From a virus (taxonomy: Duplodnaviria; Caudoviricetes), in IMG/VR virus record IMGVR_UViG_3300031760_000029, positions 18,593 through 82,592 of that record: a DNA stretch of 64,000 nt. One strand, written 5' to 3'. Position 1 is the first letter of the stretch, and the number at the start of each line of letters is the position of its first letter. The notes under the pieces are model-generated. The model ran no database searches and had not been told where the DNA came from. It saw only the letters and a list, made by a program, of their open reading frames with translations. Of this stretch, positions 10,303 to 64,000 are shown piece by piece. The position numbers and the translations under genes were made by a program.

Positions 10303-10746
10303 ATGGTAACACTGTTAATCGGATTACCCGCTTCGGGCAAGTCAACCTATGCGGCAGAAGAGGGATCCTTGGTTCTGTCTTCCGACAAGATTCGTGAGGA
10401 ATTGTACGGAGACGAATCAGTTCAGGGAAATCCCGCGAAAGTATTTTCCATCCTGTATGGGAAGATGGAAGAGGCAATCAATGATGGAGCGGAACATATC
10501 ATAATCGATGCCACCAACATCAATAAGAAAGACCGTGCAAAGGCAATTGAGATTGCCAAGAGTGGCAATCATATTGTTCGTGCGGTCGTGATGGATACGC
10601 CGATTGCGGTTTGTATTCGCCGCAACGACGCAAGGAAACGCAAGGTTCCTGACTTTGTGTTCGACAGAATGCTTAAGAAATATGAGGAACCTACGCTGAG
10701 CGAGGGTTTCGACATCATTGAGAGAAAGGAGTGGTCAGCGAAATGA
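10303..10746 (+). CDS. polynucleotide kinase-like P-loop protein (AAA_33)
   Basis: GLPASGKST Walker A, LSSDKIR, IIIDATN and R-x2-R-x-R lid motifs of the T4 Pnk kinase domain. Confidence 0.85.
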   Translation: MVTLLIGLPASGKSTYAAEEGSLVLSSDKIREELYGDESVQGNPAKVFSILYGKMEEAINDGAEHIIIDATNINKKDRAKAIEIAKSGNHIVRAVVMDTPIAVCIRRNDARKRKVPDFVFDRMLKKYEEPTLSEGFDIIERKEWSAK

Positions 10747-11952: not shown

Positions 11953-12690
11953 ATGGACTACACATACTTCATAGATTCCGATGGAAAGCTAATCCGAACA
12001 CGGATAGAGCAGGATGATGAGCCTTGGGATCCTCGGTATGACTGCGATGGAAACATCGGTCACATGATGTGTTGGTATTCGAACTATAACCTGGGCGACT
12101 ACAAAGATAACCACTACGATAACCCACATGACTTCCTGTTTTGGCAGTTGGGTGAGGAAAAGTATGAGGACGCAACCATTCCGCAGATGCTTAAAGCACT
12201 GGAGCGCAAGGGATATTACTTCATCCCGCTTGCGGTTTACGAACACAGCGGAATCACAATGTGGTGCGGCTCTCGATGGAGTCACTTCGATGCACAGTGG
12301 GATTGCTCGGATATCGGGTGGATCTACACCACAAAGGAAGAGGTCTTAAAGAGTGGTTACCGTATCAAAGGTAAGCGCGGATATCTTAAGACCACCGAAA
12401 AGAACTGGCGCAAGGTAGCGCAGGAGACGTTGGAAGCGGAAGTGAAAACGTATGACCAGTATCTGACTGGTGAAGTGTACGGATTCATGAGCGAAGTGTG
12501 GGATGGAGAAGATTGGATCGATGAGGAGTCTTGCTGGGGTTTCTATTCCGACAAGTGGGGAGATGAACTGGCAGAAGAAATCATAAGGGATTTCTATGCA
12601 AGCCCCAAATTCATAAACGAAGAGGAAGCGGAAGAGAAACAGCGGGAAGATGCGATAATGAAACAAATCGAAACTATAGTTTGCATTTGA
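11953..12690 (+). CDS. conserved phage hypothetical protein
   Basis: 245 aa; GGAGGAG RBS; aromatic- and acidic-rich. Confidence 0.75.
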   Translation: MDYTYFIDSDGKLIRTRIEQDDEPWDPRYDCDGNIGHMMCWYSNYNLGDYKDNHYDNPHDFLFWQLGEEKYEDATIPQMLKALERKGYYFIPLAVYEHSGITMWCGSRWSHFDAQWDCSDIGWIYTTKEEVLKSGYRIKGKRGYLKTTEKNWRKVAQETLEAEVKTYDQYLTGEVYGFMSEVWDGEDWIDEESCWGFYSDKWGDELAEEIIRDFYASPKFINEEEAEEKQREDAIMKQIETIVCI

Positions 12691-12705: not shown

Positions 12706-13245
12706 ATGAATGACGTAATCAACATCCCGAGCACAAGGCAGACCAAGGGCGAGTTCGCAATCTCTTATCAGCAGGCAGGACGCGGCGGTTGTATTCCGAT
12801 TGTCAACGGAAAAGAAGAGCGCAGTCTGATGTTCGGTTATGCAAGCGAGACTGATAAGGCAGCCTGCATAAAACTGCTCGAGGAGGCACTGATTGCAACA
12901 AACGGAGACATCTACGAGACACGCAGATATCTCATGAATGCGGTTGAGGTAGCCGCAAATCACATTCGTCCGAATGAGGCGCTGACTGTTGATGGAACAG
13001 AAATCCTCATTGACTACGGCAACCGTTCCGCTTATGAGGGAGCGAGGGAACTTGCTAACCTTGACGATATTGATTGCGAACTGCCGAACGAAGCAATCAA
13101 GGCACTCCTTATCAACCGCGTCCAGCTTGTGCTCGCTGATAGGGAAGTGATTGAGTACTACGACGAGGATGAGGAAGATGACTACGACGAGGACGATGAC
13201 GAGTACTATGACGATGATGATGAAGATCTTGAGTTCATCCAGTAA
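12706..13245 (+). CDS. hypothetical protein with long acidic tail
   Basis: 179 aa; ends DEDEEDDYDEDDDEYYDDDDEDLEFIQ. Confidence 0.75.
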   Translation: MNDVINIPSTRQTKGEFAISYQQAGRGGCIPIVNGKEERSLMFGYASETDKAACIKLLEEALIATNGDIYETRRYLMNAVEVAANHIRPNEALTVDGTEILIDYGNRSAYEGARELANLDDIDCELPNEAIKALLINRVQLVLADREVIEYYDEDEEDDYDEDDDEYYDDDDEDLEFIQ

Positions 13246-13353
13246 GCACTAAAATTAAAGCCCCACGCTACCACAGGTGGGGCATGAAAAAGAAAATAAT
13301 CCCACATTTTGTGGGTGTAAATAAAACAACTGTTTGATTGAAAGGAGATCCAA

Positions 13354-15426
13354 ATGAACAAAGAAGAGAAGGCGGCACTTGTTAAGAAGTATTGCAACGA
13401 GAATACTAAGCCCAAGCAAGATTTATGCCCTGAGGTAAATCAGTACATCCGCACGTCAAAGGGATACGAGATTTGGAACTCCAAAGATTTAAGCAGGGAG
13501 CCGATTAACTTTGACCCTACAAGATGGAGCGACGTAAGAGAATGCGGTCTCAACAATGTGGTTTGCGTTCGCAATGAATACGAAGGTCTTTACATCGAAT
13601 ACCACGAGGATATGGATACTCTTGAATTCGCCCACATCTTCATGGATGGCGGCAGAGGTAAGGCAGGCGAAGCGAAAGAATGGTACTACGGAAATGGCTG
13701 GAATTATTCCCGCTACTTCATCTTCCGCAATGATCCGAATGCATACAGCAATACTGGTATTCTTACTGGCAATACCCACTACTCAAAGGATTTACTGAAG
13801 GAAATGAAGACATGGTCACGTCGTAGTTTGGTAGGAGAAGAGAACTACGCAGAGTTTAAGAAGTTTGCTCCAGATTCAAGCGAACTCCGTGAGTACAATC
13901 ACTGGTACAGCACACCACTCGCTCAAATATGGCAGTATGCACGGTGGTATCAAATGGAGTTCATAAAGCGAACTTCGAGTAAGACATTTAATGATCTTTC
14001 TGCTTACGAATTAGATGATATCACGCCGCTTCCGTCGAAATCTGTGGTGGATGATAAGAAAATGATTTACTTCCAAAAACTTGACGACAAATATGCGGTT
14101 CTTCGTGTATTCAGATATGGATACAGATATGAGATTAATTCAGACAAAATAATAGAAGAAATGCGTCTGTTTGTGTCTGACAAAGGTAAACCTACCGTCA
14201 TGGTGAATGATGGATACTGGAAAATAAAGGCGAGTACACCTTGGGCGGCGCAAGGAGCAGCGGTGATTATCAATGCAAGTGATATTCAGGAATGGAAGCC
14301 ATTAAAATATATCATGCCTTGTATTGAGGATGATATAAATATTCAGAATTTTATCAATTATCTGCGGCATCCGATTGTTGAACAGTTGTCAAAGGCTGGT
14401 TATGTGAATGTTGCAAAAAAATTGATGTATTGTGATGAGATTGCGTCAAATATGAAAACCTTCTTCCTTGTCGAAAAGGAAACAAAGCAGCCGATGTTTA
14501 AGTTGCTTGGTGTTAACAAGTTCGTACTTAACGCAATGGAGTGTCATGACGGGAACCTCAAGATTGCAAGAGAGATTAAATATTTTGTGGGTGGTTTCGA
14601 TGCGACAGAATTGTCACAGGATGTTTGTGATTACATCGCGAACTATGTTGACAGTGGCAGATACGGCAGTAACAGCATTACAACCTTAGTTCCTGGACAT
14701 AGATATGAGTACTGGCGCAGAGATAGTCGGTATAGTACGCCACTTACAGATGACGAAAAGAAATGGATTCTTAAGTTGTTCAAGATGGAATCCAAACAGA
14801 CTGGTTGTATTAGTTTGTTTGATGATGTTATCTCGACATACAACAGAATCAATAACAAGCCAGACATCGATCTCTACAACGTAAAGAACTATGACGACAT
14901 AAACAGATTACATGATGCTCTTGTTGCTCTTAAGGTACAGGAAGATAGAGAACGGCAGGCATTAAGAGATGCGTCAGAAAGAGAACGGCAGGAACTGCTT
15001 AAGAAGAAGTTTGAGAAACTTCAGGACGAACGTATCAAGAAATACGAGTATGAGGACGGAGACTTCTGCATCAGAGTCCCCCACCAGTTAGATGAAATCA
15101 CAAAGGAAGGTATTGTGCTGAATCACTGTGTTGGCGGATATCTTGATAAGCACGCTCAGGGAATCACGAATATCCTTTTCCTGAGACGTAAGGCAGATGA
15201 GAATATTCCGTTCTATACCATCGAGATTTGTGATGACCATGTGATTCAGATTCACGGTAATCACAATCGTTGGCTCGGGAATAATCCTGAAGCGGTACCG
15301 TTCGTATACAAGTATCTTGAGCAGTTAGGAGTTAGGTACGATAAGAAACTTCTGCTGAACAAGGGAGCTGGCTATAGTGCGGGAGACGAGGAGTTGCCCG
15401 AGAGTTACTTACAGGAGGCTGCGTAA
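13354..15426 (+). CDS. PcfJ-like domain protein
   Basis: C-terminal EITKEGIVLNHCVGGY...ILFLRR..DENIPFYTIEI....VIQIHG is the PcfJ-like signature. Confidence 0.8.
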   Translation: MNKEEKAALVKKYCNENTKPKQDLCPEVNQYIRTSKGYEIWNSKDLSREPINFDPTRWSDVRECGLNNVVCVRNEYEGLYIEYHEDMDTLEFAHIFMDGGRGKAGEAKEWYYGNGWNYSRYFIFRNDPNAYSNTGILTGNTHYSKDLLKEMKTWSRRSLVGEENYAEFKKFAPDSSELREYNHWYSTPLAQIWQYARWYQMEFIKRTSSKTFNDLSAYELDDITPLPSKSVVDDKKMIYFQKLDDKYAVLRVFRYGYRYEINSDKIIEEMRLFVSDKGKPTVMVNDGYWKIKASTPWAAQGAAVIINASDIQEWKPLKYIMPCIEDDINIQNFINYLRHPIVEQLSKAGYVNVAKKLMYCDEIASNMKTFFLVEKETKQPMFKLLGVNKFVLNAMECHDGNLKIAREIKYFVGGFDATELSQDVCDYIANYVDSGRYGSNSITTLVPGHRYEYWRRDSRYSTPLTDDEKKWILKLFKMESKQTGCISLFDDVISTYNRINNKPDIDLYNVKNYDDINRLHDALVALKVQEDRERQALRDASERERQELLKKKFEKLQDERIKKYEYEDGDFCIRVPHQLDEITKEGIVLNHCVGGYLDKHAQGITNILFLRRKADENIPFYTIEICDDHVIQIHGNHNRWLGNNPEAVPFVYKYLEQLGVRYDKKLLLNKGAGYSAGDEELPESYLQEAA

Positions 15427-21430: not shown

Positions 21431-22530
21431 TACATTAAAATTTCTCGAGGATTTGGAAAAGGAAACAACAAACAAGAAGCTACGGAATCTGCTGCACTGT
21501 CTTATCTCTTCCAGTCCAAGTCTCGACTTGGCATGTGGAGATTGGAACGACAGGGAGTATTTCTATGCAGAAGAATATGGTGAACTGGTTGAAGATACGG
21601 CAAGAGAACTGGAAAACATTATGGGAGTTCGAAGGAAATAAAAGAAAGGTTTTGTGAGGTAAAAATCATGAAAGAATATAGATTTCGTGTTGATTTGTGT
21701 GGCGGTTATACTGATGGTTTTATTACGGTAAAGGCAGATGATGAAGGTAATGCATACGACAAGGCAACAGAATATGTTGGCAAGAAATTATATGAAGCAT
21801 TTCCTGAATTAGACATAGAATATAACGTTGAAGTATATGAAGAGTATGATACGGAAGAAGATGAATAAAAACAACATTTCAAGGGAGGAAGCAATGCAGA
21901 GACATTTATACTTCGTTAAAATCCAGGGTCGGAAAGCAGTATACGATATCATCATAGCTGCTTTTAGTGAAGCAAATGCACGAGCAGTTGCAGAAGAATA
22001 TTTTGAAAATATAGCAATGGAAGTGAGGCCATGTACTTTAGAAGATATAGATAACGCAAAAGATAAAAGGATTATGCATATGAGTCACATAATGACTCCG
22101 TTAGATAGAGAAGTGGCTGAAAGATATGGTATTAAATAAAACCAAGATATTTCAAGAGAGGTAAATATATGGACGAGAAGTCACGGCTTTATGATGAAAT
22201 AAGCAGAGTGCTGACGAATTACGAAGAGTATGTAAATGGAACTGGAGATGACAGTGAGATCTACGAGAGAGCTGCAGATATGTATTCTGTTTTGGTGGAT
22301 ATTCAGAACCAGTGGGAGACGGTAATTACGGCACAATAAACCGAACATTTCAAGGAAGGTAAAAGAGAATGACCAAAGCAGAAATCATTAAAGAACTTCA
22401 TAGTTGTGGTGAGATGTGGGCAAATAATTCGTACTCAAAAGAATATCTGGAAAAGTATCTTGAAAAATACAAAGAAGCTACAAAAATGACGATTGAAGAA
22501 TTATATGCAGCGATTAAGGCAAAGAAATAA
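21417..22530 (+). CDS. five small cassette-like ORFs (21417-21641, 21668-21868, 21894-22139, 22169-22339, 22369-22530)
   Basis: Each ends at a junction site; 53-81 aa; all but the first (which overlaps the previous ORF) have their own RBS. Confidence 0.65.
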
Positions 22531-40605: not shown

Positions 40606-41763
40606 ATGTTAAACGAAAACAAGGAACGAGAGCTTGCGTATATAGTAGTAGTTGACAATGTCGAACCAATTGATGGTTACGACAAGATTGCTTATGCAAC
40701 GGTTGGCGGCTGGCACTGTGTCGTTGGTGCAGATATGAAAGCTGGAGATAAGGCGATTTATTTTGAAATTGATTCTCTGTTGCCGAGCACGGATCAGAGA
40801 TTTGCATTCTGCGAAAAATATCATTACAAGGTGAAAACCCAAAAATACTGTAAGGGATCTAGAATCTCACAGGGCTTGTTACTTCCGATTACAGAGTTTC
40901 CTGAGTTTGTAGATGCTGAAGTGGGAACATTTGTTACTAAGCAGCTTGGTGTTACCTATTACGATCCAATGGACCGTGCAAGGAAGAGTAAGGGCGAATC
41001 AACTCCTCAGTATAAGAACTGGTTTAAGAGATGGAGTAAGAGATTTCCATTCAAACAGTTGTTGAGTACAAGGATTGGTAGAAAGGTTTTATTTCCGATC
41101 TTTACCGTTAAAAAGAAAAAGCGCGTTTGGCCAGACTTTATTCCGAAGACGGATGAAGAAAGAATAAATAACTGCTGTTATGTATTAAATGATAAGACAC
41201 CATACGAGGTGTCGGAGAAGGTCGACGGTTCAAGTAGCAGTTATGGCATCAGACGTGGTAAGCATGGCAAGTATGAGTACTATGTATGTTCTCGTAACGT
41301 AGTATTCCCCAGCGCCGATCAAACGTCGTATTATGCCAAGAATATTTGGTGGGAGATGTATGAAAAATATAACATCAAGGATTTTTTAACAGATTTCCTT
41401 GAGAAGACTGGTGCAGAGTGGGTATATCTCCAGGGAGAGACGTTCGGTGATGGAGTACAGAAGCGTGATTACTCTATCAAGTGCAGAGATTTCAGAGCGT
41501 TCGTCCTGTGTACTTCGCAGCGTGTCAGATACTCGTATGCGGAAACCAAGGAGATACTTGATCAATATAATATTCCTACAGTGCCGATTATTGACACGAA
41601 TTTCATTCTGCCAGATACCGCTGATGAGTTAATCACATATGCTGCTGGTCCATCTGCTATTGATGGATTGCCGAGAGAGGGTATTGTCTTAAGAAGTGTA
41701 AATGATCCGACAAAGAGCTTTAAAGCCGTAGATCCAGCTTATTTACTGCGTTTCCACGGATGA
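40606..41763 (+). CDS. ATP-dependent RNA ligase (DRB0094/Rnl2-like, N-terminal OB-like domain)
   Basis: RELAYIV.V..VEPI.G.DKI; motif I EKVDGSS; QGETFG; motif IV REGIV; motif V SFKAV. Confidence 0.85.
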   Translation: MLNENKERELAYIVVVDNVEPIDGYDKIAYATVGGWHCVVGADMKAGDKAIYFEIDSLLPSTDQRFAFCEKYHYKVKTQKYCKGSRISQGLLLPITEFPEFVDAEVGTFVTKQLGVTYYDPMDRARKSKGESTPQYKNWFKRWSKRFPFKQLLSTRIGRKVLFPIFTVKKKKRVWPDFIPKTDEERINNCCYVLNDKTPYEVSEKVDGSSSSYGIRRGKHGKYEYYVCSRNVVFPSADQTSYYAKNIWWEMYEKYNIKDFLTDFLEKTGAEWVYLQGETFGDGVQKRDYSIKCRDFRAFVLCTSQRVRYSYAETKEILDQYNIPTVPIIDTNFILPDTADELITYAAGPSAIDGLPREGIVLRSVNDPTKSFKAVDPAYLLRFHG

Positions 41764-55959: not shown

Positions 55960-57120
55960 ATGACTACAAAGGTTAAAGTTGTTATAGGAGCTTCTGCTGG
56001 TGATGAGGGGAAGGGTTTAGTTACAGACTATTTTGCAGCTGAATCTTCTCGATTATGCAGAACATGTCTTAATGTGTTATCTAACGGTGGTAGCCAGCGT
56101 GGTCATACTGTGACAGTCCCTAATGGAACATCTCATGTATTCCATCATTTTGGAGCAGGAACATTTGTTGGGGCAAAAACATATCTTCCATCATATTTCA
56201 TTGTTAATCCTATGAATTTTGCGAAGGAATATGATGAATTAATAACCATTGGTGCAAAATGCTGTCCGATATTTATTAATAAAAATTGCCCACTAACTAC
56301 ACCGTTCGATATGTTGGCAAATATGATGATTGAGGAATCTCGTGGATCAAATCGCCATGGAAGTTGTGGATGTGGAATCTGGGAAACAATTTTGCGAAAT
56401 GGTATTACAGTTGGAGAGTTCGCAGCAAAATCGGAAGAAGAGAAGATTAGGTATCTTGAGTTTGTGCGTGATAATTATTTTCGTAATAGAATTAGTTCAA
56501 AAGGTATTAGCGGCTATACAAAATGGGACGACATTATTTACTCTGCTAATCTTATACCAAATTATATTTATGATTTCAATTTGCTAATCAGCAACTCAAT
56601 ATTTACTGATGATTCTATCATGAGGGTTTATGATGACATTATTTTTGAAAATGGTCAAGGGCTACTATTGGATCAGAATATAGAGGGATACGGCAAAAAT
56701 ACTACTCCAAGTAATACTGGATTACAAAATCCATCAGAAATGATAAACAATTTGCCAAATGATGTAGATGTAGAAGTGGTATATGTAAGTCGCACCTATC
56801 TTACTCGACATGGTGTTGGCAGATTTGATACTGAATGTGAAATGGATGGAATAAGTAATCATATTACTACTGATAAAACAAATATCTGGAATGAATGGCA
56901 AGGAAATTTGCGTTATGGGATTTTGGATTTGGGTAATCTGGAAACTAGAGTGTTAAAAGACTTTACTAGCTATGGGCATCTTGATTGGAAAATAAGTTTC
57001 TTTTTTACACATTATAACGAAAACAATAGTATTTGTTTGAATAGCATTGTTAACAATTATAATACTTATATTTCAGATGGCAAAACAAGAAATAATATTC
57101 AATCAAAGAATATTTCATGA
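55960..57120 (+). CDS. divergent adenylosuccinate-synthetase-like ligase
   Basis: GDEGKG, GGSQRGHTV, GSCGCGIWET, FENGQGLLLD and YLTRHG.G. The Asp-binding loop is replaced by TNIWNEWQGNLRYG and the C-terminus is short. Confidence 0.8.
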   Translation: MTTKVKVVIGASAGDEGKGLVTDYFAAESSRLCRTCLNVLSNGGSQRGHTVTVPNGTSHVFHHFGAGTFVGAKTYLPSYFIVNPMNFAKEYDELITIGAKCCPIFINKNCPLTTPFDMLANMMIEESRGSNRHGSCGCGIWETILRNGITVGEFAAKSEEEKIRYLEFVRDNYFRNRISSKGISGYTKWDDIIYSANLIPNYIYDFNLLISNSIFTDDSIMRVYDDIIFENGQGLLLDQNIEGYGKNTTPSNTGLQNPSEMINNLPNDVDVEVVYVSRTYLTRHGVGRFDTECEMDGISNHITTDKTNIWNEWQGNLRYGILDLGNLETRVLKDFTSYGHLDWKISFFFTHYNENNSICLNSIVNNYNTYISDGKTRNNIQSKNIS

Positions 57121-59543: not shown

Positions 59544-62500
59544 ATGATAATGCAGAACAATTATGTGACATATCACCTTCATAGTAGTAATTCTTTATTA
59601 GATTCTTGTACAAGTTATCAAGAGTATATTGATTACGCTGCTTCAATTGGGCAGAAAGCAATATGTTTCACGGAACATGGAAATTTGTACCAGTGGTTTG
59701 GAAAGAAATTGTATGCCGAATCAAAGGGATTAAAGTATTTGCATGGCGTCGAATGTTATCTAACTGAAAGATTTAAGAATCCAGATGATAAAGATGACAA
59801 GAATATTCGCGACAATTATCATACAATACTAATTGCACGCGACTGGGATGGATTTGTTGAATTAAATAATCTGGTATACAAGAGTTCTCGGCCAGATCAT
59901 ATGTACTATAAGTGGCGTTTATCTTTTGATGAGTTTCTTGAGATTAGTGACCATATTATCAAAATATCCGCCTGTGTACAGAGTCCACTTAACAGATACA
60001 GACAGAATGTTAAGGCGCGTGGTATTACAGACGCTGATAAAAAGATGATGACAAGGCTGCTGCAGCATTATGATTACTATGAAATCCAGTATCATAATAT
60101 GCAGGACCAGATTGAGTTCAATCAGTATCTATACAGAATGTCACAGAAATTTCATAAGCCATTAATCGCGGCTACGGATACGCATAGCTTGAATAAATAT
60201 AAGGCCGAATGCCGCACAATGCTACAGTATGGTAAGACGGATGGTGCCTGGGGTGACGATGAGAATGAGTGCGATCTGACGTACAAAACGTACGATGAAT
60301 TGGTTGCGGCATTTGAAGAACAGAATTCTCTTCCTATGGATGTTGTTCTTGAAGCCATTGAAAATACAAATAGGATGGCTGATTCTGTCGAAGAAATTAA
60401 GATTGATACTCATAACAAATATCCAATTCTTTACGGAGAGCGCGACGAAGAGGTATTGTGGGATATTATCAAGAAGAATTATAAGGAGAAGCGGAAGGCT
60501 GGCATTATCTCTGATGATAAGCAGTACATAGAGAATATCAAGGAGGAAATGCGAGTATTTAAGAAGATTGATATGATTGGATTCATGTTATTCATGTCTG
60601 AGATAATGACATGGGCGCGTGAAAATCATATTGCAACAGGATTTGCACGTGGTTCTGTTGCGGGTAGCACAGTGGCATACATGGCGAATATAACAGATGT
60701 TGATCCTATTAAGTGGCATACAATATTCTCCAGATTTGCGAACGAGAACAGGGTTGAGGCTGGAGATATTGATACAGACTGGTATGAAGATGACAGACAA
60801 AAGGTCTATGACTATATCATTAATCGGTTTGGCTCTGATAAGACTGCATATATCCTGGCCATGGGTACGCTAGCTGATAAATCTGTAATAGATGTGATTG
60901 GCAAGGCGTTCAGAGTTAAGGCTGAGCGCACAAATACAACAACAGAATATACACTGGAGAAGATCAAAGATATTAAAAAGGAATACGAAGAAGATCCAGA
61001 CAAGGCCAAGCATGATTATCCAGATCTATTTTATTATTATGATGGATTGCTTGATTGTATTGTATCTCAGAGCCAACATCCTGCTGGACTGATAGTCAGT
61101 TCTGTCAATCTAGTGGATAATTGTAGCGGTTTTTATGGCTCTGATGGACAGGTTATCTTACCGCTTGATATGGATCAGTGTCACGATATGGGACAGATCA
61201 AGTATGACATTCTTGGCCTCAAGTCTGTTGGTGTAATTGACAAGGTATATAAAATGCTTGGCAAAAACTTCCCACGTGCTGATGAAGTGGATTGGGATGA
61301 CCAAGAAGTGTATGACGATATAGCAAATGATCATACAGCGATCTTTCAGTTTGAATCTGATTACAGTGGTGATTGCTTGAAGAAGATGCATCCAACCAGT
61401 GTTGACGAACTGAGTCTGGTAAATGCATGTATCAGACCATCTGGTGAAACGTACAGAGATGATTTGTTATCCAGAAGAGTTCATAAGAATCCTTCTGAAA
61501 TCATAGATAATATGCTTAAGACGAATCTTGGTTTCTTGGTATATCAAGAGGACACCATTGCATTCCTTCAGCAGATATGTGGATTCTCTGGATCTGAAGC
61601 TGATACAGTACGACGTGCCATTGGTAAGAAGAAAGAAGAAGAGGTTAATGCTGCACTTCCTAAGATACTGGATGGGTACTGTGCAAAGTCTGATAAGCCG
61701 CGCAAAGAGGCTGAGGAAGAAGCAAAAGAATTTCTTGATGTTATTGCTTCGTCAAGCGCGTATCAATTTGGACGAAATCATAGTATTGCATACAGTATGT
61801 TGTCTTACATGATGGGGTATCTGAAGTATCACTATCCAGTACAATTCTGCACAGCGTTCTTGAATTGTGCTAAGAATGATGATGATATTCAGAACGGTAC
61901 GAAGATAGCGCAGAGTAAAGGCATTGCAATTGAGGGTATCAGATTTGGATTTTCGCGTGGTGAATACTCGTGTGATCCAGATAACAAAATCATCTATAAA
62001 GGAATTGCATCAATAAAGTATATGTCAAACCAACTTGCAGAAGAATTATATTCGCTCCGTAACTACAAATATGAGACATTTACGGATCTTTTATATGACA
62101 TTACTGACAAAACATCATGTGATAGCAGACAGTTGGATATCCTGGTCAAGCTCAATTTCTTTGAGGAGTTCGGAGATATTAATGATCTCCTTGCTCAAAT
62201 TGAAAACTACAGGAAGTTACGCGATAAAAAGACGCTAAAAGTATCAGATTTGGATACATTTAGCTTAGATTTGACACGTGTGAAACCGTTTGCGGAAAAA
62301 ATCACAGAAAAACAGATAAAAATTTCTGACATGCGGCCATTAATAACCGACATGAATGCGCGTGAAAACCGACACGAAACGTCACTTATTGATCGAATAC
62401 GTTACGAGAACGAATTACTGGGATACATTTCGTTGACATTACCAGACATTGCGGAACATTACTATTACATTACGAAGATTACTGGCAACGCATCACGAAT

Positions 62501-62741
62501 GGTTTCACTGTATCAGCTGAAGACTGGCAAGACGGAGAAGTATAAAGTTCGCAAGGCTTACTTCGAAAAGAATCCTCTTGAGGAAGGTCAGATAATAAAC
62601 GTGATAGAAATTACAGAAGATTATAAATGGCGTTGCATAAACAGCGCTACGACGGGCAAAAAAGAGTTCGAAAGAACCGATGAAAGAGAGTTTTTATTGA
62701 CACGCTACAAAATTTTGAAAAAATCAAAAAAAAGGTGTTGA
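59544..62741 (+). CDS. dnaE: DNA polymerase III alpha subunit (DnaE)
   Basis: PHP domain (YHLHS, FTEHG, GVECY, ATDTH), RGSVAGS, catalytic DIDTD, HPAG, YDILGL, YQE and FGRNHSIAY. No intein seen. Confidence 0.95.
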   Translation: MIMQNNYVTYHLHSSNSLLDSCTSYQEYIDYAASIGQKAICFTEHGNLYQWFGKKLYAESKGLKYLHGVECYLTERFKNPDDKDDKNIRDNYHTILIARDWDGFVELNNLVYKSSRPDHMYYKWRLSFDEFLEISDHIIKISACVQSPLNRYRQNVKARGITDADKKMMTRLLQHYDYYEIQYHNMQDQIEFNQYLYRMSQKFHKPLIAATDTHSLNKYKAECRTMLQYGKTDGAWGDDENECDLTYKTYDELVAAFEEQNSLPMDVVLEAIENTNRMADSVEEIKIDTHNKYPILYGERDEEVLWDIIKKNYKEKRKAGIISDDKQYIENIKEEMRVFKKIDMIGFMLFMSEIMTWARENHIATGFARGSVAGSTVAYMANITDVDPIKWHTIFSRFANENRVEAGDIDTDWYEDDRQKVYDYIINRFGSDKTAYILAMGTLADKSVIDVIGKAFRVKAERTNTTTEYTLEKIKDIKKEYEEDPDKAKHDYPDLFYYYDGLLDCIVSQSQHPAGLIVSSVNLVDNCSGFYGSDGQVILPLDMDQCHDMGQIKYDILGLKSVGVIDKVYKMLGKNFPRADEVDWDDQEVYDDIANDHTAIFQFESDYSGDCLKKMHPTSVDELSLVNACIRPSGETYRDDLLSRRVHKNPSEIIDNMLKTNLGFLVYQEDTIAFLQQICGFSGSEADTVRRAIGKKKEEEVNAALPKILDGYCAKSDKPRKEAEEEAKEFLDVIASSSAYQFGRNHSIAYSMLSYMMGYLKYHYPVQFCTAFLNCAKNDDDIQNGTKIAQSKGIAIEGIRFGFSRGEYSCDPDNKIIYKGIASIKYMSNQLAEELYSLRNYKYETFTDLLYDITDKTSCDSRQLDILVKLNFFEEFGDINDLLAQIENYRKLRDKKTLKVSDLDTFSLDLTRVKPFAEKITEKQIKISDMRPLITDMNARENRHETSLIDRIRYENELLGYISLTLPDIAEHYYYITKITGNASRMVSLYQLKTGKTEKYKVRKAYFEKNPLEEGQIINVIEITEDYKWRCINSATTGKKEFERTDEREFLLTRYKILKKSKKRC

Positions 62742-62766
62742 CAAAGACTAAAATTAAACGTATACT
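62738..62766 (+). promoter_or_regulatory. consensus sigmaA promoter of the RNA array, with a CTAAAATTAAACG box in the spacer
   Basis: TTGACA-17 bp-TATACT. Confidence 0.85.
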
Positions 62767-62786
62767 GATACCATAATTAAATATGT

Positions 62787-62885
62787 GCGCGGGATGTAAC
62801 TATTAACTTAACCAACATGAAGCGGCCACGGATATGGCGTCCTCTAGGTGAGAAAATAATGACAGACCTCTAACTATCCCCGCGC
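62787..62885 (+). ncRNA. candidate small structured RNA (about 100 nt)
   Basis: Terminal helix gcgcgggat/atc(c)ccgcgc; internal gcca/tggc hairpin; first element after the promoter. Confidence 0.4.
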
Positions 62886-62888
62886 CGA

Positions 62889-62959
62889 AGCCCTTTAGCA
62901 TAACAGTAGTGCAACGGCCTTTGACGCCGTTTGAGGTGGGGCGGCACCACCAAGGGCTG
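62889..62959 (+). tRNA. tRNA-Gln(UUG) with non-canonical T-loop
   Basis: agccctt/aagggct acceptor; gcat/gtgc D-stem; acggc-CT TTG AC-gccgt; ggtgg-GGCGGCA-ccacc; no encoded CCA. Confidence 0.8.
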
Positions 62960-63032
62960 TGCCTAGAAAGGTTTTTATAGCCTTTTGGGGCTGAATAGTA
63001 GCATCGCGAGCGTGGCGCGTCCTGCGCCACGT

Positions 63033-63150
63033 GCGTGGTAGTACAAAGGAAGTACACGGCGAATTATTATTGGTATTGATGGGAATTCAAGTGTTATTTG
63101 GTACTGTAGGTAAAAAGCCGTAATCTCCAGTTCAAGTCTGGAGCCACGCA
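63033..63150 (+). ncRNA. tRNA-like RNA 1 (6-bp acceptor, 6-bp T-stem, 56-nt region in place of the anticodon loop)
   Basis: gcgtgg/ccacgc; TA; gtac/gtac; acggc...gccgt; ctccag-TTCAAGT-ctggag; A73. Confidence 0.7.
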
Positions 63151-63308
63151 TGATTTTCATATCTGGAGCTCGTAACAGAAACAACATCGTCACCTGCAAG
63201 AGCGACGTATCCCATAGGTGAAAGACTTAAGTCAGTTGGTGGGATGCCTCCTTTCTGCTACTATGATGTCAATTATGCGTCAAAAATAGCAGAAATTGAT
63301 ATAAATAC

Positions 63309-63438
63309 GGATGGTAGTGTATAGGTAGCACGCAGCAGTTTTGGAATCTATCTCGACTATGGGGAAGATCTTTGTTGGATATTTGATACTATCTTGGAAC
63401 TGCTGCTGAAAACTGAGGTTCGAATCCTCAGCCATCCA
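63309..63438 (+). ncRNA. tRNA-like RNA 2 (6/6 fold, extended anticodon arm, 65 nt between the 5-bp stem halves)
   Basis: ggatgg/ccatcc; TA; gtgt/gcac; gcagcagtt...aactgctgc; ctgagg-TTCGAAT-cctcag; A73. Confidence 0.7.
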
Positions 63439-63441
63439 TTT

Positions 63442-63515
63442 CGAAAAGTAGCACAGTTGGTGAGTGCACGCGCCTTATAAGCGCGGGGTCGTAGGTTCGA
63501 GTCCTACCTTTTCGA
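63442..63515 (+). tRNA. tRNA-Ile(UAU)
   Basis: cgaaaag/cttttcg; gcac/gtgc; cgcgc-CT TAT AA-gcgcg; gtagg-TTCGAGT-cctac; A73. Confidence 0.88.
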
Positions 63516-63650
63516 TGTGTGGGAGATTTGATAACAAATACATCGACTCCCTGTGGATAAGACCAAGTATGTTGATGGCGCATAAATACAGAAAACGGTC
63601 TCCACTAACAAATTGATGGATGTGTCGTTTGGGTCACGTAAACCCAACAT

Positions 63651-63791
63651 GGATGGTGGCGGAAAGGGTAACGCGCAACTGTTAGGATACTTTTCCAGAC
63701 GTGCTAGCGGCAAACAGTTCTGTTGGCGTTCTGTTAATGACTTGGCCGATCATTAATAGAACCATGTAAGGTTCGAATCCTTACCCATCCA
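63651..63791 (+). ncRNA. tRNA-like RNA 3 (6/6 fold, Leu-like D-arm, enlarged anticodon arm, 13-bp extra arm)
   Basis: ggatgg/ccatcc; TG; gcg/cgc; aactgtt-29 nt-aacagtt; gttctgttaatga/tcattaatagaac; gtaagg-TTCGAAT-ccttac; A73. Confidence 0.65.
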
Positions 63792-64000
63792 CACTCCTAA
63801 GAGCACATGTATCCTAGGAACGGCAGCGTTTGAAATAGCGTATGTCGGAGTGCTCGGGCGTGAGCTGAACCACGGATGTCGGCCTCTTCTTCGCCTAGAA
63901 GAGTGAGCAGTTGGTGAGTCGACCGCTAACTGATGGCGAGACAATGCACTGACAGGTGCGGTTTCCACGTTAGTTTAGAATCTCCTACGACTAGATGTAG
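63792..64000 (+). ncRNA. start of a further structured RNA, possibly running off the window edge
   Basis: cactcc/ggagtg or gagcac/gtgctc helices; ctcttct/agaagag; cagtt/aactg; gcac/gtgc; no ORF. Confidence 0.4.

Follow-up and report, generated by a model that had tools for sequence, protein, structure and literature searches.

Near the end of a 64,000-nucleotide (nt) stretch of phage DNA, a transfer RNA (tRNA) array was found to contain three tRNA-shaped elements, RNA1, RNA2 and RNA3, in which the place of the anticodon arm is taken by a long structured region. The stretch, referred to as the window, makes up the final 64 kb of an IMG/VR phage contig of 82.6 kb (IMGVR_UViG_3300031760_000029, ~50% complete by estimate), and the contig end falls inside the array. 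RNA3 is a class II tRNA-Leu-type body without any anticodon arm, not an interrupted tRNA, and is a member of a large, covarying family of phage RNAs that mostly combine an acceptor of 7 base pairs (bp) with a T stem of 6 bp (written 7/6). We regard it as probable that all three elements are non-decoding RNA genes built on a tRNA frame, transcribed from one strong promoter together with two real tRNAs and matured by the host tRNA enzymes.

For comparison, use was made of L327, a rumen-type contig of 2.4 kb that is 98% identical to the window in the polymerase C-terminus and 81–90% identical in the array. The three elements are composed as follows.

63032..63150, + strand: RNA1, class I tRNA-shaped (fold -35 kcal/mol, z -3.3; no significant Rfam match)
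63032-63038, + strand: RNA1 5' strand, followed by a UA connector and the D arm (63041-63055)
63056-63121, + strand: RNA1 long irregular hairpin, ~22 bp
63125-63143, + strand: RNA1 6-bp T stem with UUCAAGU loop, after a 3-nt linker and before the 3' strand (63144-63150)
63308..63438, + strand: RNA2, class I tRNA-shaped (Rfam tRNA 32.6 bits, fold z -3.6; kept in L327)
63308-63314, + strand: RNA2 5' strand, followed by a UA connector and the D arm (63317-63331)
63332-63408, + strand: RNA2 extended arm, proximal stem 9-10 bp
63413-63431, + strand: RNA2 6-bp T stem with UUCGAAU loop, after an AAAA linker and before the 3' strand (63432-63438)
63650..63791, + strand: RNA3, anticodon-less tRNA-Leu-like element, 7/6 (covariance model R1 described below, family covariation, fold)
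63650-63656, + strand: RNA3 acceptor strand, paired with 63785-63791
63659-63674, + strand: RNA3 D arm with GCG/CGC stem, after a UG connector
63675-63727, + strand: RNA3 variable centre
63728-63762, + strand: RNA3 long variable arm, with U48 at 63765
63766-63784, + strand: RNA3 6-bp T stem with UUCGAAU loop, outer pair G63766-C63784

Three tRNA-shaped elements had been placed here by an original prediction made from the sequence, and both sequence and folds agree with them. All three have an end helix, a UA or UG connector, a GG-bearing D arm and a 7-nt UUCRAxU T loop, and single-stretch folds returned the same frame for each (z -3.3 to -3.6 against shuffled sequences), with arms of 66–77 nt in RNA1 and RNA2 and several hairpins in RNA3. 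The GGAUGG/CCAUCC helix said to be common to RNA2 and RNA3 was confirmed in the sequence, and the extra arm of RNA3, described as 13 bp long, was folded with 13–14 bp at 63728-63762. The original prediction had also divided the acceptor/T stack of each element into 6+6 bp and suggested a 6/6 class. The 6-bp T stem was found in RNA1, RNA2 and RNA3, by sequence and by folding, and is the unusual feature; the acceptor of RNA3 is 7 bp long, the stack of its family being 7/6. Neither the canonical 7-bp acceptor with 5-bp T stem (7/5) nor the canonical 5-bp anticodon stem with 7-nt loop is present in any of the three.

ARAGORN (no intron option) and Rfam at curated cut-offs detected only tRNA-Gln and tRNA-Ile in the array, both ordinary 7/5 tRNAs as had been stated. 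At relaxed thresholds RNA2 was aligned to the Rfam tRNA model (RF00005, gathering cut-off 29 bits) at the score listed above, which exceeds the cut-off only in an alignment that inserts 63 nt in the anticodon arm and skips position 7 of the model. No match to RF00005 was obtained for RNA1 or RNA3 up to E 10, and no Rfam family was matched by either; an assignment of RNA1 to the Streptococcus small RNA SpF41 was rejected as not significant (22.1 bits, cut-off 52). A 7/5 reading of RNA1 and RNA2 with a U.G pair is less likely, since the D stem would then be preceded by a single connector base and position 7 is already skipped in the alignment to the Rfam model. For RNA3 the 7/5 reading had been called mismatched, and U does lie opposite C in RNA3 and in its family.

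RNA3 was assigned 7/6 because the base before its originally predicted 5' end covaries, within the family, with the base that had been taken for an unpaired A73. These two bases form the terminal pair U63650-A63791, and the unpaired 3' base is C63792. Read from this covariation, the RNA3 stack is 7+6=13 bp, not 6+6, and the seventh acceptor pair is under selection. RNase P acts as a rigid ruler along the acceptor/T stack (PMC4919913), so the mature 5' end of RNA3 could still lie one base further in. RNA3 resembles canonical class II tRNA-Leu (RF00005) in the 7 nt before U8-G9, the 3-bp GCG/CGC D stem with Leu-type loop, U48, the long variable arm and the UUCRAAU T loop; it differs in the missing anticodon arm, the 6-bp T stem (13-bp stack), the variable base after the helix and the absence of an RF00005 match.

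The family was gathered by two scans. When IMG/VR was searched with the T arm of RNA3, 57 loci were obtained, and 19 unique RNAs joined the T arm to a tRNA-Leu-type D arm (UG, GCG stem, GAAUGGGUAGA-like loop), their end helix varying freely and their total lengths ranging from 81 to 177 nt; the base before the originally predicted 5' end pairs with the former discriminator in 17 of the 19. A second scan by the D arm alone, which is blind to stem lengths, yielded at least 115 stretches. Among the matches listed, 61 of 69 resolved unique RNAs were 7/6, i.e. with 7 nt before U8, a 7-bp end helix and an extra pair between U48 and the usual 5-bp T stem. Over 75 unique members, pair 1:72 was U-A in 33, G-C in 24, A-U in 10 and C-G in 3, with 5 mismatches; pairs 2–6 covaried freely; pair 7:66 was G-C in 75/75; the outer T pair was G-C in 73/75, and a U preceded the T stem in 73/75. 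The base after the helix was A in 45, U in 26 and C in 4. In an alignment of 19 representatives, 99.7% of cells pair, as against 34–44% for registers slid by 1–3 columns; both-sided changes were seen at 10 of 16 pairs, and the observed covariation score was reached by none of 500 shuffles.

A covariance model (R1) was built from these 19 representatives, which do not include RNA3. The following matches were obtained.

RNA3, window 63648-63793, in the 7/6 register: 59 bits, E 4.5e-13
Homologue in the related metagenome-assembled genome (MAG) contig L007: 66.6 bits, E 4.4e-15
L004, first copy: 70 bits, E 5.3e-16
L004, second copy: 46.2 bits, E 1.1e-09
Enterococcus phage EH-TP1, unannotated: 81.1 bits, E 6.2e-19
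Leuconostoc phage phiLN34, unannotated: 63.8 bits, E 2.7e-16

A covariance model with a metagenome search had been suggested as the check for a 6/6 register; it has returned a family with real covariation, and the register that it supports for RNA3 is 7/6. RNA3 shares with the family the R1 match, the UG connector with GCG/CGC Leu-type D arm, the covarying pair 1:72 and the 6-bp T stem. In phiLN34 the member lies at NC_024388 ~139-238 (L334 1446-1545), near an HNH endonuclease gene and the genome end, and by BLAST the Leuconostoc phages LNTR2, LNTR3, CHA, CHB and P974 also carry unannotated members. In EH-TP1 it lies at PQ571301 ~26.6 kb (L331 2398-2531), ~2.4 kb upstream of the terminase small-subunit gene. 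Small siphophages carry the member between early genes and terminase genes, and it persists even in 28-kb phages. A search of the literature gave no description of an anticodon-less tRNA-Leu-like phage family, and none was found in Rfam.

The centres of the members differ widely. In members of 82–91 nt the D arm leads straight into a hairpin of 4 or 5 bp that is capped by a 4-nt loop and occupies the site of the anticodon arm, and a short hairpin of the variable arm comes next; longer members have unrelated structured centres. Four members of 176–178 nt have visibly similar centres on four different acceptor stems, so that the centre looks conserved, by sequence comparison, in at least some members. 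The RNA3 centre (63675-63727) and variable arm (63728-63762) had no match among the other fetched loci. Unique sequences from all fetched phage loci were also sorted by geometry; the sample is enriched for the RNA3 family by the way it was collected, and the counts below are not population frequencies.

Canonical-length tRNAs: 7/5 496, 7/6 9
tRNA-like elements >95 nt: 7/5 58, 7/6 73

The outer pair is Watson-Crick in 56 of the 73 long 7/6 elements. Another recurrent group of long tRNA-like elements was seen in L074, L077, L124, L073 and L090 (e.g. L074 2409-2515, minus strand); these have the 5' strand UUGAUUA and a GUGU/CACA-type D arm, and an additional base, unpaired in most cases, separates their T stem from the 3' acceptor strand.

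RNA3 is present or absent as a unit. In L327 the sequence found downstream of RNA3 in the window begins right at the end of tRNA-Ile. Because L327 thus lacks 63517-63791, RNA3 and the spacer before it form a cassette that was gained or lost.

63517..63649, + strand: spacer that comes and goes with RNA3 and opens the 275-nt cassette 63517-63791

A search of the phage genome for antisense targets gave nothing above chance, the best being 14 nt of RNA3 at coding positions 22446-22459 (E 0.02, 8 queries).

RNA1 and RNA2 stand outside the RNA3 family because their D stems are 4 bp long with 7-nt loops; they also have variable regions of 3–4 nt and a T stem opened by C-G. RNA1 had no match to R1. 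RNA2 of the window matched R1 locally, in the T arm only (15.4 bits, E 0.16), and its copy in L327 matched over the full length (30.3 bits, E 1.9e-5). When all arms and spacers were compared by BLAST with ~330 fetched loci, L327 was the sole match; T-arm pattern scans of IMG/VR gave none for RNA2 and only ordinary tRNAs for RNA1, and BLAST against GenBank phages gave tRNA-Ile only. Between window and L327 the arms of RNA1 and RNA2 are 93–95% identical over matched stretches. RNA1 carries four substitutions in L327, all four of which keep the pair (A-U to G.U, G.U to G-C, G-C to G.U and G.U to A-U). The pair equivalent to 1:72 is U-A in RNA1 of the window and C.A in L327, and the reverse holds for RNA2; because the end pair is U-A in one contig and C.A in the other, RNA1 and RNA2 may be either 7/6 or 6/6. 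The tip loop of the RNA1 arm (63085-63091) is a 7-nt AUUCAAG, identical in L327, which would read as an anticodon loop with U33, UCA and A37; its distance from the elbow is too great for decoding by about two helical turns, and the resemblance is probably a coincidence.

The half of the tRNA that is kept in these elements, i.e. the acceptor helix, the T arm and the elbow-forming D arm, is the one that maturation enzymes recognise. RNase P, RNase Z and the CCA-adding enzyme would release and finish the RNAs as they do tRNAs, which would give them defined ends and tRNA-like stability; no match to a CCA-adding enzyme was found in the contig (~half a genome). Without an anticodon they would be excluded from translation, and the 13-bp stack probably helps in this. 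The working part would be the lineage-specific central arm or, in the shortest members, the bare frame, and either would bind a protein or RNA partner. Among the interpretations offered at the outset, a scaffold or carrier processed by RNases P and Z fits a conserved, covarying frame around a hypervariable centre, and the introns also offered there are not supported.

Several points weigh against non-decoding RNA genes matured as tRNAs. It is from sequence that we infer transcription, processing, the addition of CCA and the true 5' end. Minimal members have no obvious cargo, which agrees more with a role of the frame itself than with a carrier. Processing alone would not call for a tRNA-Leu D arm as strictly kept as this one. 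The arms of RNA1 and RNA2 rest on 4 and 1 pair-preserving changes, respectively, in one relative, and in RNA2 of L327 the proximal 9–10-bp stem is kept and the distal arm is rearranged. No partner gene emerged from 1088 nearby open reading frames (ORFs) at 117 loci, where no cluster occurred with more than 4 of 33 acceptor types and the top clusters were terminase, DUF1642, DUF3310 or unknowns. A further reading, for which we see a small chance, is that the 6-bp T stem and the missing anticodon arm mark a distinct, widespread class of phage RNA recognised by a dedicated host or phage factor through its geometry, with a 13-bp acceptor/T stack; if so, the frame would do more than offer a handle for processing, and the RNAs might serve e.g. 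as a shield or trap in a conflict over host tRNAs between defence nucleases and phage repair.

The strict D arm is also the starting point for a different account, in which the tRNA frame (Leu-type in RNA3) is a decoy or competitor that occupies a host factor binding tRNA bodies, for instance a tRNA-targeting defence nuclease, a synthetase, or a modification or surveillance enzyme, with an RNA that translation cannot use and that cannot be cut in an anticodon loop. We hold this to be a tentative possibility. Across the 75 unique members hardly any variation is seen in the 19-nt Leu-type D arm, at U48 or in the elbow while the rest varies, and the shortest members consist of little beyond the frame. 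Phages repair cleaved tRNAs with a kinase and ligase pair (T4 Pnkp/Rnl1), and the RNA ligase and P-loop kinase of the contig are of the pair type used for such repair. However, the base after the helix varies as counted above, which speaks against leucyl-tRNA synthetase, an enzyme to which A73 is important; the anticodon loop that known anticodon nucleases recognise is missing from these RNAs; and RNA1 and RNA2 are built on other frames. In another account the folds are only punctuation, i.e. RNase P/Z signals separating conserved spacers or neighbouring messenger RNAs. In its favour, the spacers are as well conserved against L327 as the arms of RNA1 and RNA2, and the small-siphophage member has its place between early and terminase genes. 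We nevertheless judge punctuation unlikely: a bare acceptor/T minihelix would suffice for it, it gives no reason for the strictness of the D arm, for the variable arm or for conserved cargo domains, and the two real tRNAs of the array already supply cleavage sites.

That the inserts are introns, excised by an endonuclease together with the phage ligase and kinase so that working tRNAs result, was proposed in the original prediction and is now highly improbable. Some observations do point that way. With its intron option ARAGORN calls RNA1 and RNA2 intron-bearing tRNAs; removal of 63346-63397 leaves a UU-UGG-AA loop in RNA2, as had been noticed; and genes for an RNA-ligase domain (PF09414, window ~41200-41730) and for an AAA_33 kinase (window ~10306-10692) are present in the contig, which bears out the RNA ligase and polynucleotide kinase ascribed to the phage. 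The nearest report is that of the Lak megaphages, where 'enigmatic' tRNA introns were described, with type, anticodon and intron predicted by tRNAscan eukaryote settings (PMC6784885); the likeness lies in over-long tRNA genes with inserts of unexplained nature in phage tRNA sets, and the difference in that RNA1–3 have no canonical anticodon arm that can be rebuilt. The ARAGORN cut points and anticodons are arbitrary, and its call over RNA3 starts 41 nt upstream and puts the RNA3 acceptor and D arm inside the 'intron', so that the frame of RNA3 itself is not recovered. For RNA1 and RNA3 no excision gives a 5-bp stem with 7-nt loop, in line with the earlier failure to rebuild an anticodon for either, and the loop left in RNA2 stands on a stem of 8 bp, the over-long stem of that prediction. 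The minimal family members carry tetraloops, the inserts match no intron (including group I) or ribozyme family of Rfam, no tRNA-splicing endonuclease (PF01974) was matched in the contig (~50% of the genome), and the 6-bp T stem is itself non-canonical.

Decay of pseudo-tRNAs without function is extremely improbable. Phage tRNA arrays do contain degenerate copies, and in the window the T loop of tRNA-Gln is poor and a fourth element lacks a D arm; against this stand the strong covariation and near-invariant tertiary positions over the 75 unique members, the preservation of pairing by every RNA1 substitution and the retention of the family even in 28-kb phages. Homologues without covariation had been named as the sign of decay, and the strong covariation of the RNA3 family disfavours it. 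It is very unlikely, too, that the elements are Y-RNA-like modules with an extended arm as the docking site of a phage Ro60-like protein. YrlA has its RNA ends in a Ro-binding stem, and a loop closes its acceptor helix (PMC4201824). RNA1–3 would share with it the fusion of a tRNA-like module to a protein-binding stem and differ in that their ends lie in the acceptor helix; they have no YrlA match (RF02553) up to E 10 (62700-64000), and no Ro60/TROVE (PF05731) or DUF2828 (PF11443) match was found in the contig (~half a genome). In favour of such modules, two long tRNA-like elements with a promoter of their own immediately precede a DUF2828+DUF7788 (vWA) gene in the related phage locus L003, and one of the two elements matches YrlA weakly (22.3 bits, E 0.24); yet these elements are 7/5 and their arms are unrelated. 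A Ro-like partnership is possible in the L003 lineage, and nothing ties it to the window. The L003 elements lie at 12353-12616 and the gene at 12751-14295; in the first element a normal 5-bp stem carries an 8-nt loop (UUUUCAUU), and the variable region has a ~55-nt insert.

Stable tRNA-like RNAs in the tRNA clusters of phages T4 and T5 have been known for decades and carry no annotated function. RNA1 of phage T5 (AY543070 30501-30644) is annotated as 'tRNA-like stable RNA with unknown functions'; like RNA3 it surrounds a large central insert with a D arm of the tRNA-Leu type, a T arm and an end helix, and it matched R1 with 29.7 bits (E 2.7e-5), but its T stem is 5 bp (7/5), whereas that of the window RNAs and of most gathered family members is 6 bp. 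The T4 species 1 and 2 RNAs (rnaC and rnaD) and the T5 RNA are, like RNA1–3 of the window, non-tRNA RNAs inside a phage tRNA cluster. The rnaC RNA (species 1) ends in a T arm followed by an acceptor-like strand, and rnaC and rnaD differ in having no D arm; the comparison with T5 and T4 concerns position in the tRNA cluster and fold only. Non-canonical acceptor/T splits are known from tRNA-Sec (8/5, 9/4) and the allo-tRNAs (8/4, 9/3), which have a lengthened acceptor and a shortened T stem (PMC5389517, PMC7609411). The non-canonical split is shared with RNA1–3, and a 13-bp total is that of tRNA-Sec; unlike RNA1–3 those RNAs decode, and RNA1–3 have a lengthened T stem (6 bp, beside an acceptor of 7 or 6 bp), no anticodon arm and no 6-bp D stem. 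Among the passages of a review on non-canonical tRNAs that a term search matched, none mentioned a 6-bp T stem.

The window shows such tRNA-like RNAs to be common in uncultured gut and rumen phages of Bacillota, with several frames in one array, gained and lost as cassettes. Most members of the largest gathered family have the 7/6 arrangement, for which the matched passages of the review offer no counterpart. The unannotated members in small cultured Leuconostoc and Enterococcus phages make direct experiments feasible, and RNA1–3 are natural counterparts of the engineered 'tRNA scaffolds' used for RNA expression.

The array lies just downstream of a DNA polymerase III alpha gene (59544-62741), and relatives traced through this gene come from metagenomes of rumen and gut as well as from MAGs with the labels Bacillales, Coprobacillaceae, Bacilli and Lachnospiraceae. 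The further features of the array are the following.

62738..62766, + strand: sigma-70-type promoter (TTGACA, 17 nt, TATACT; 11/12 consensus matches; same site kept in L327)
62889..62959, + strand: tRNA-Gln(UUG), 7/5, with an odd T loop GGCGGCA without UUC (46 bits)
63441..63516, + strand: tRNA-Ile(UAU), canonical 7/5 (71.7 bits; identical in L327)
63962..64000, + strand: fourth tRNA-like element, of which only the 5' part precedes the contig end (full copy at ~L327 1313-1406)

By its sequence the promoter at 62738-62766 most likely drives the whole array, inside which no terminator was found. At the position of tRNA-Gln, L327 carries a different, canonical tRNA-Gln(UUG). The array spacers (62780-62888, 63151-63307 and 63792-63953) are 92–96% identical to L327 over matched stretches; they contain hairpins and D-arm-like strings (CAGUUGGUG) and may be further processed RNAs or tRNA remnants. 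In its L327 copy the fourth element has a 7–9-bp end helix, two hairpins and a T arm with UUCGAAG loop, without a GG-bearing D arm, and is followed by a hairpin and then by protein genes. Elsewhere in the window a divergent adenylosuccinate-synthetase-like gene (55960-57120; PF00709, E 2e-31) was noted in a small operon, where the preceding ORF matches no Pfam family.

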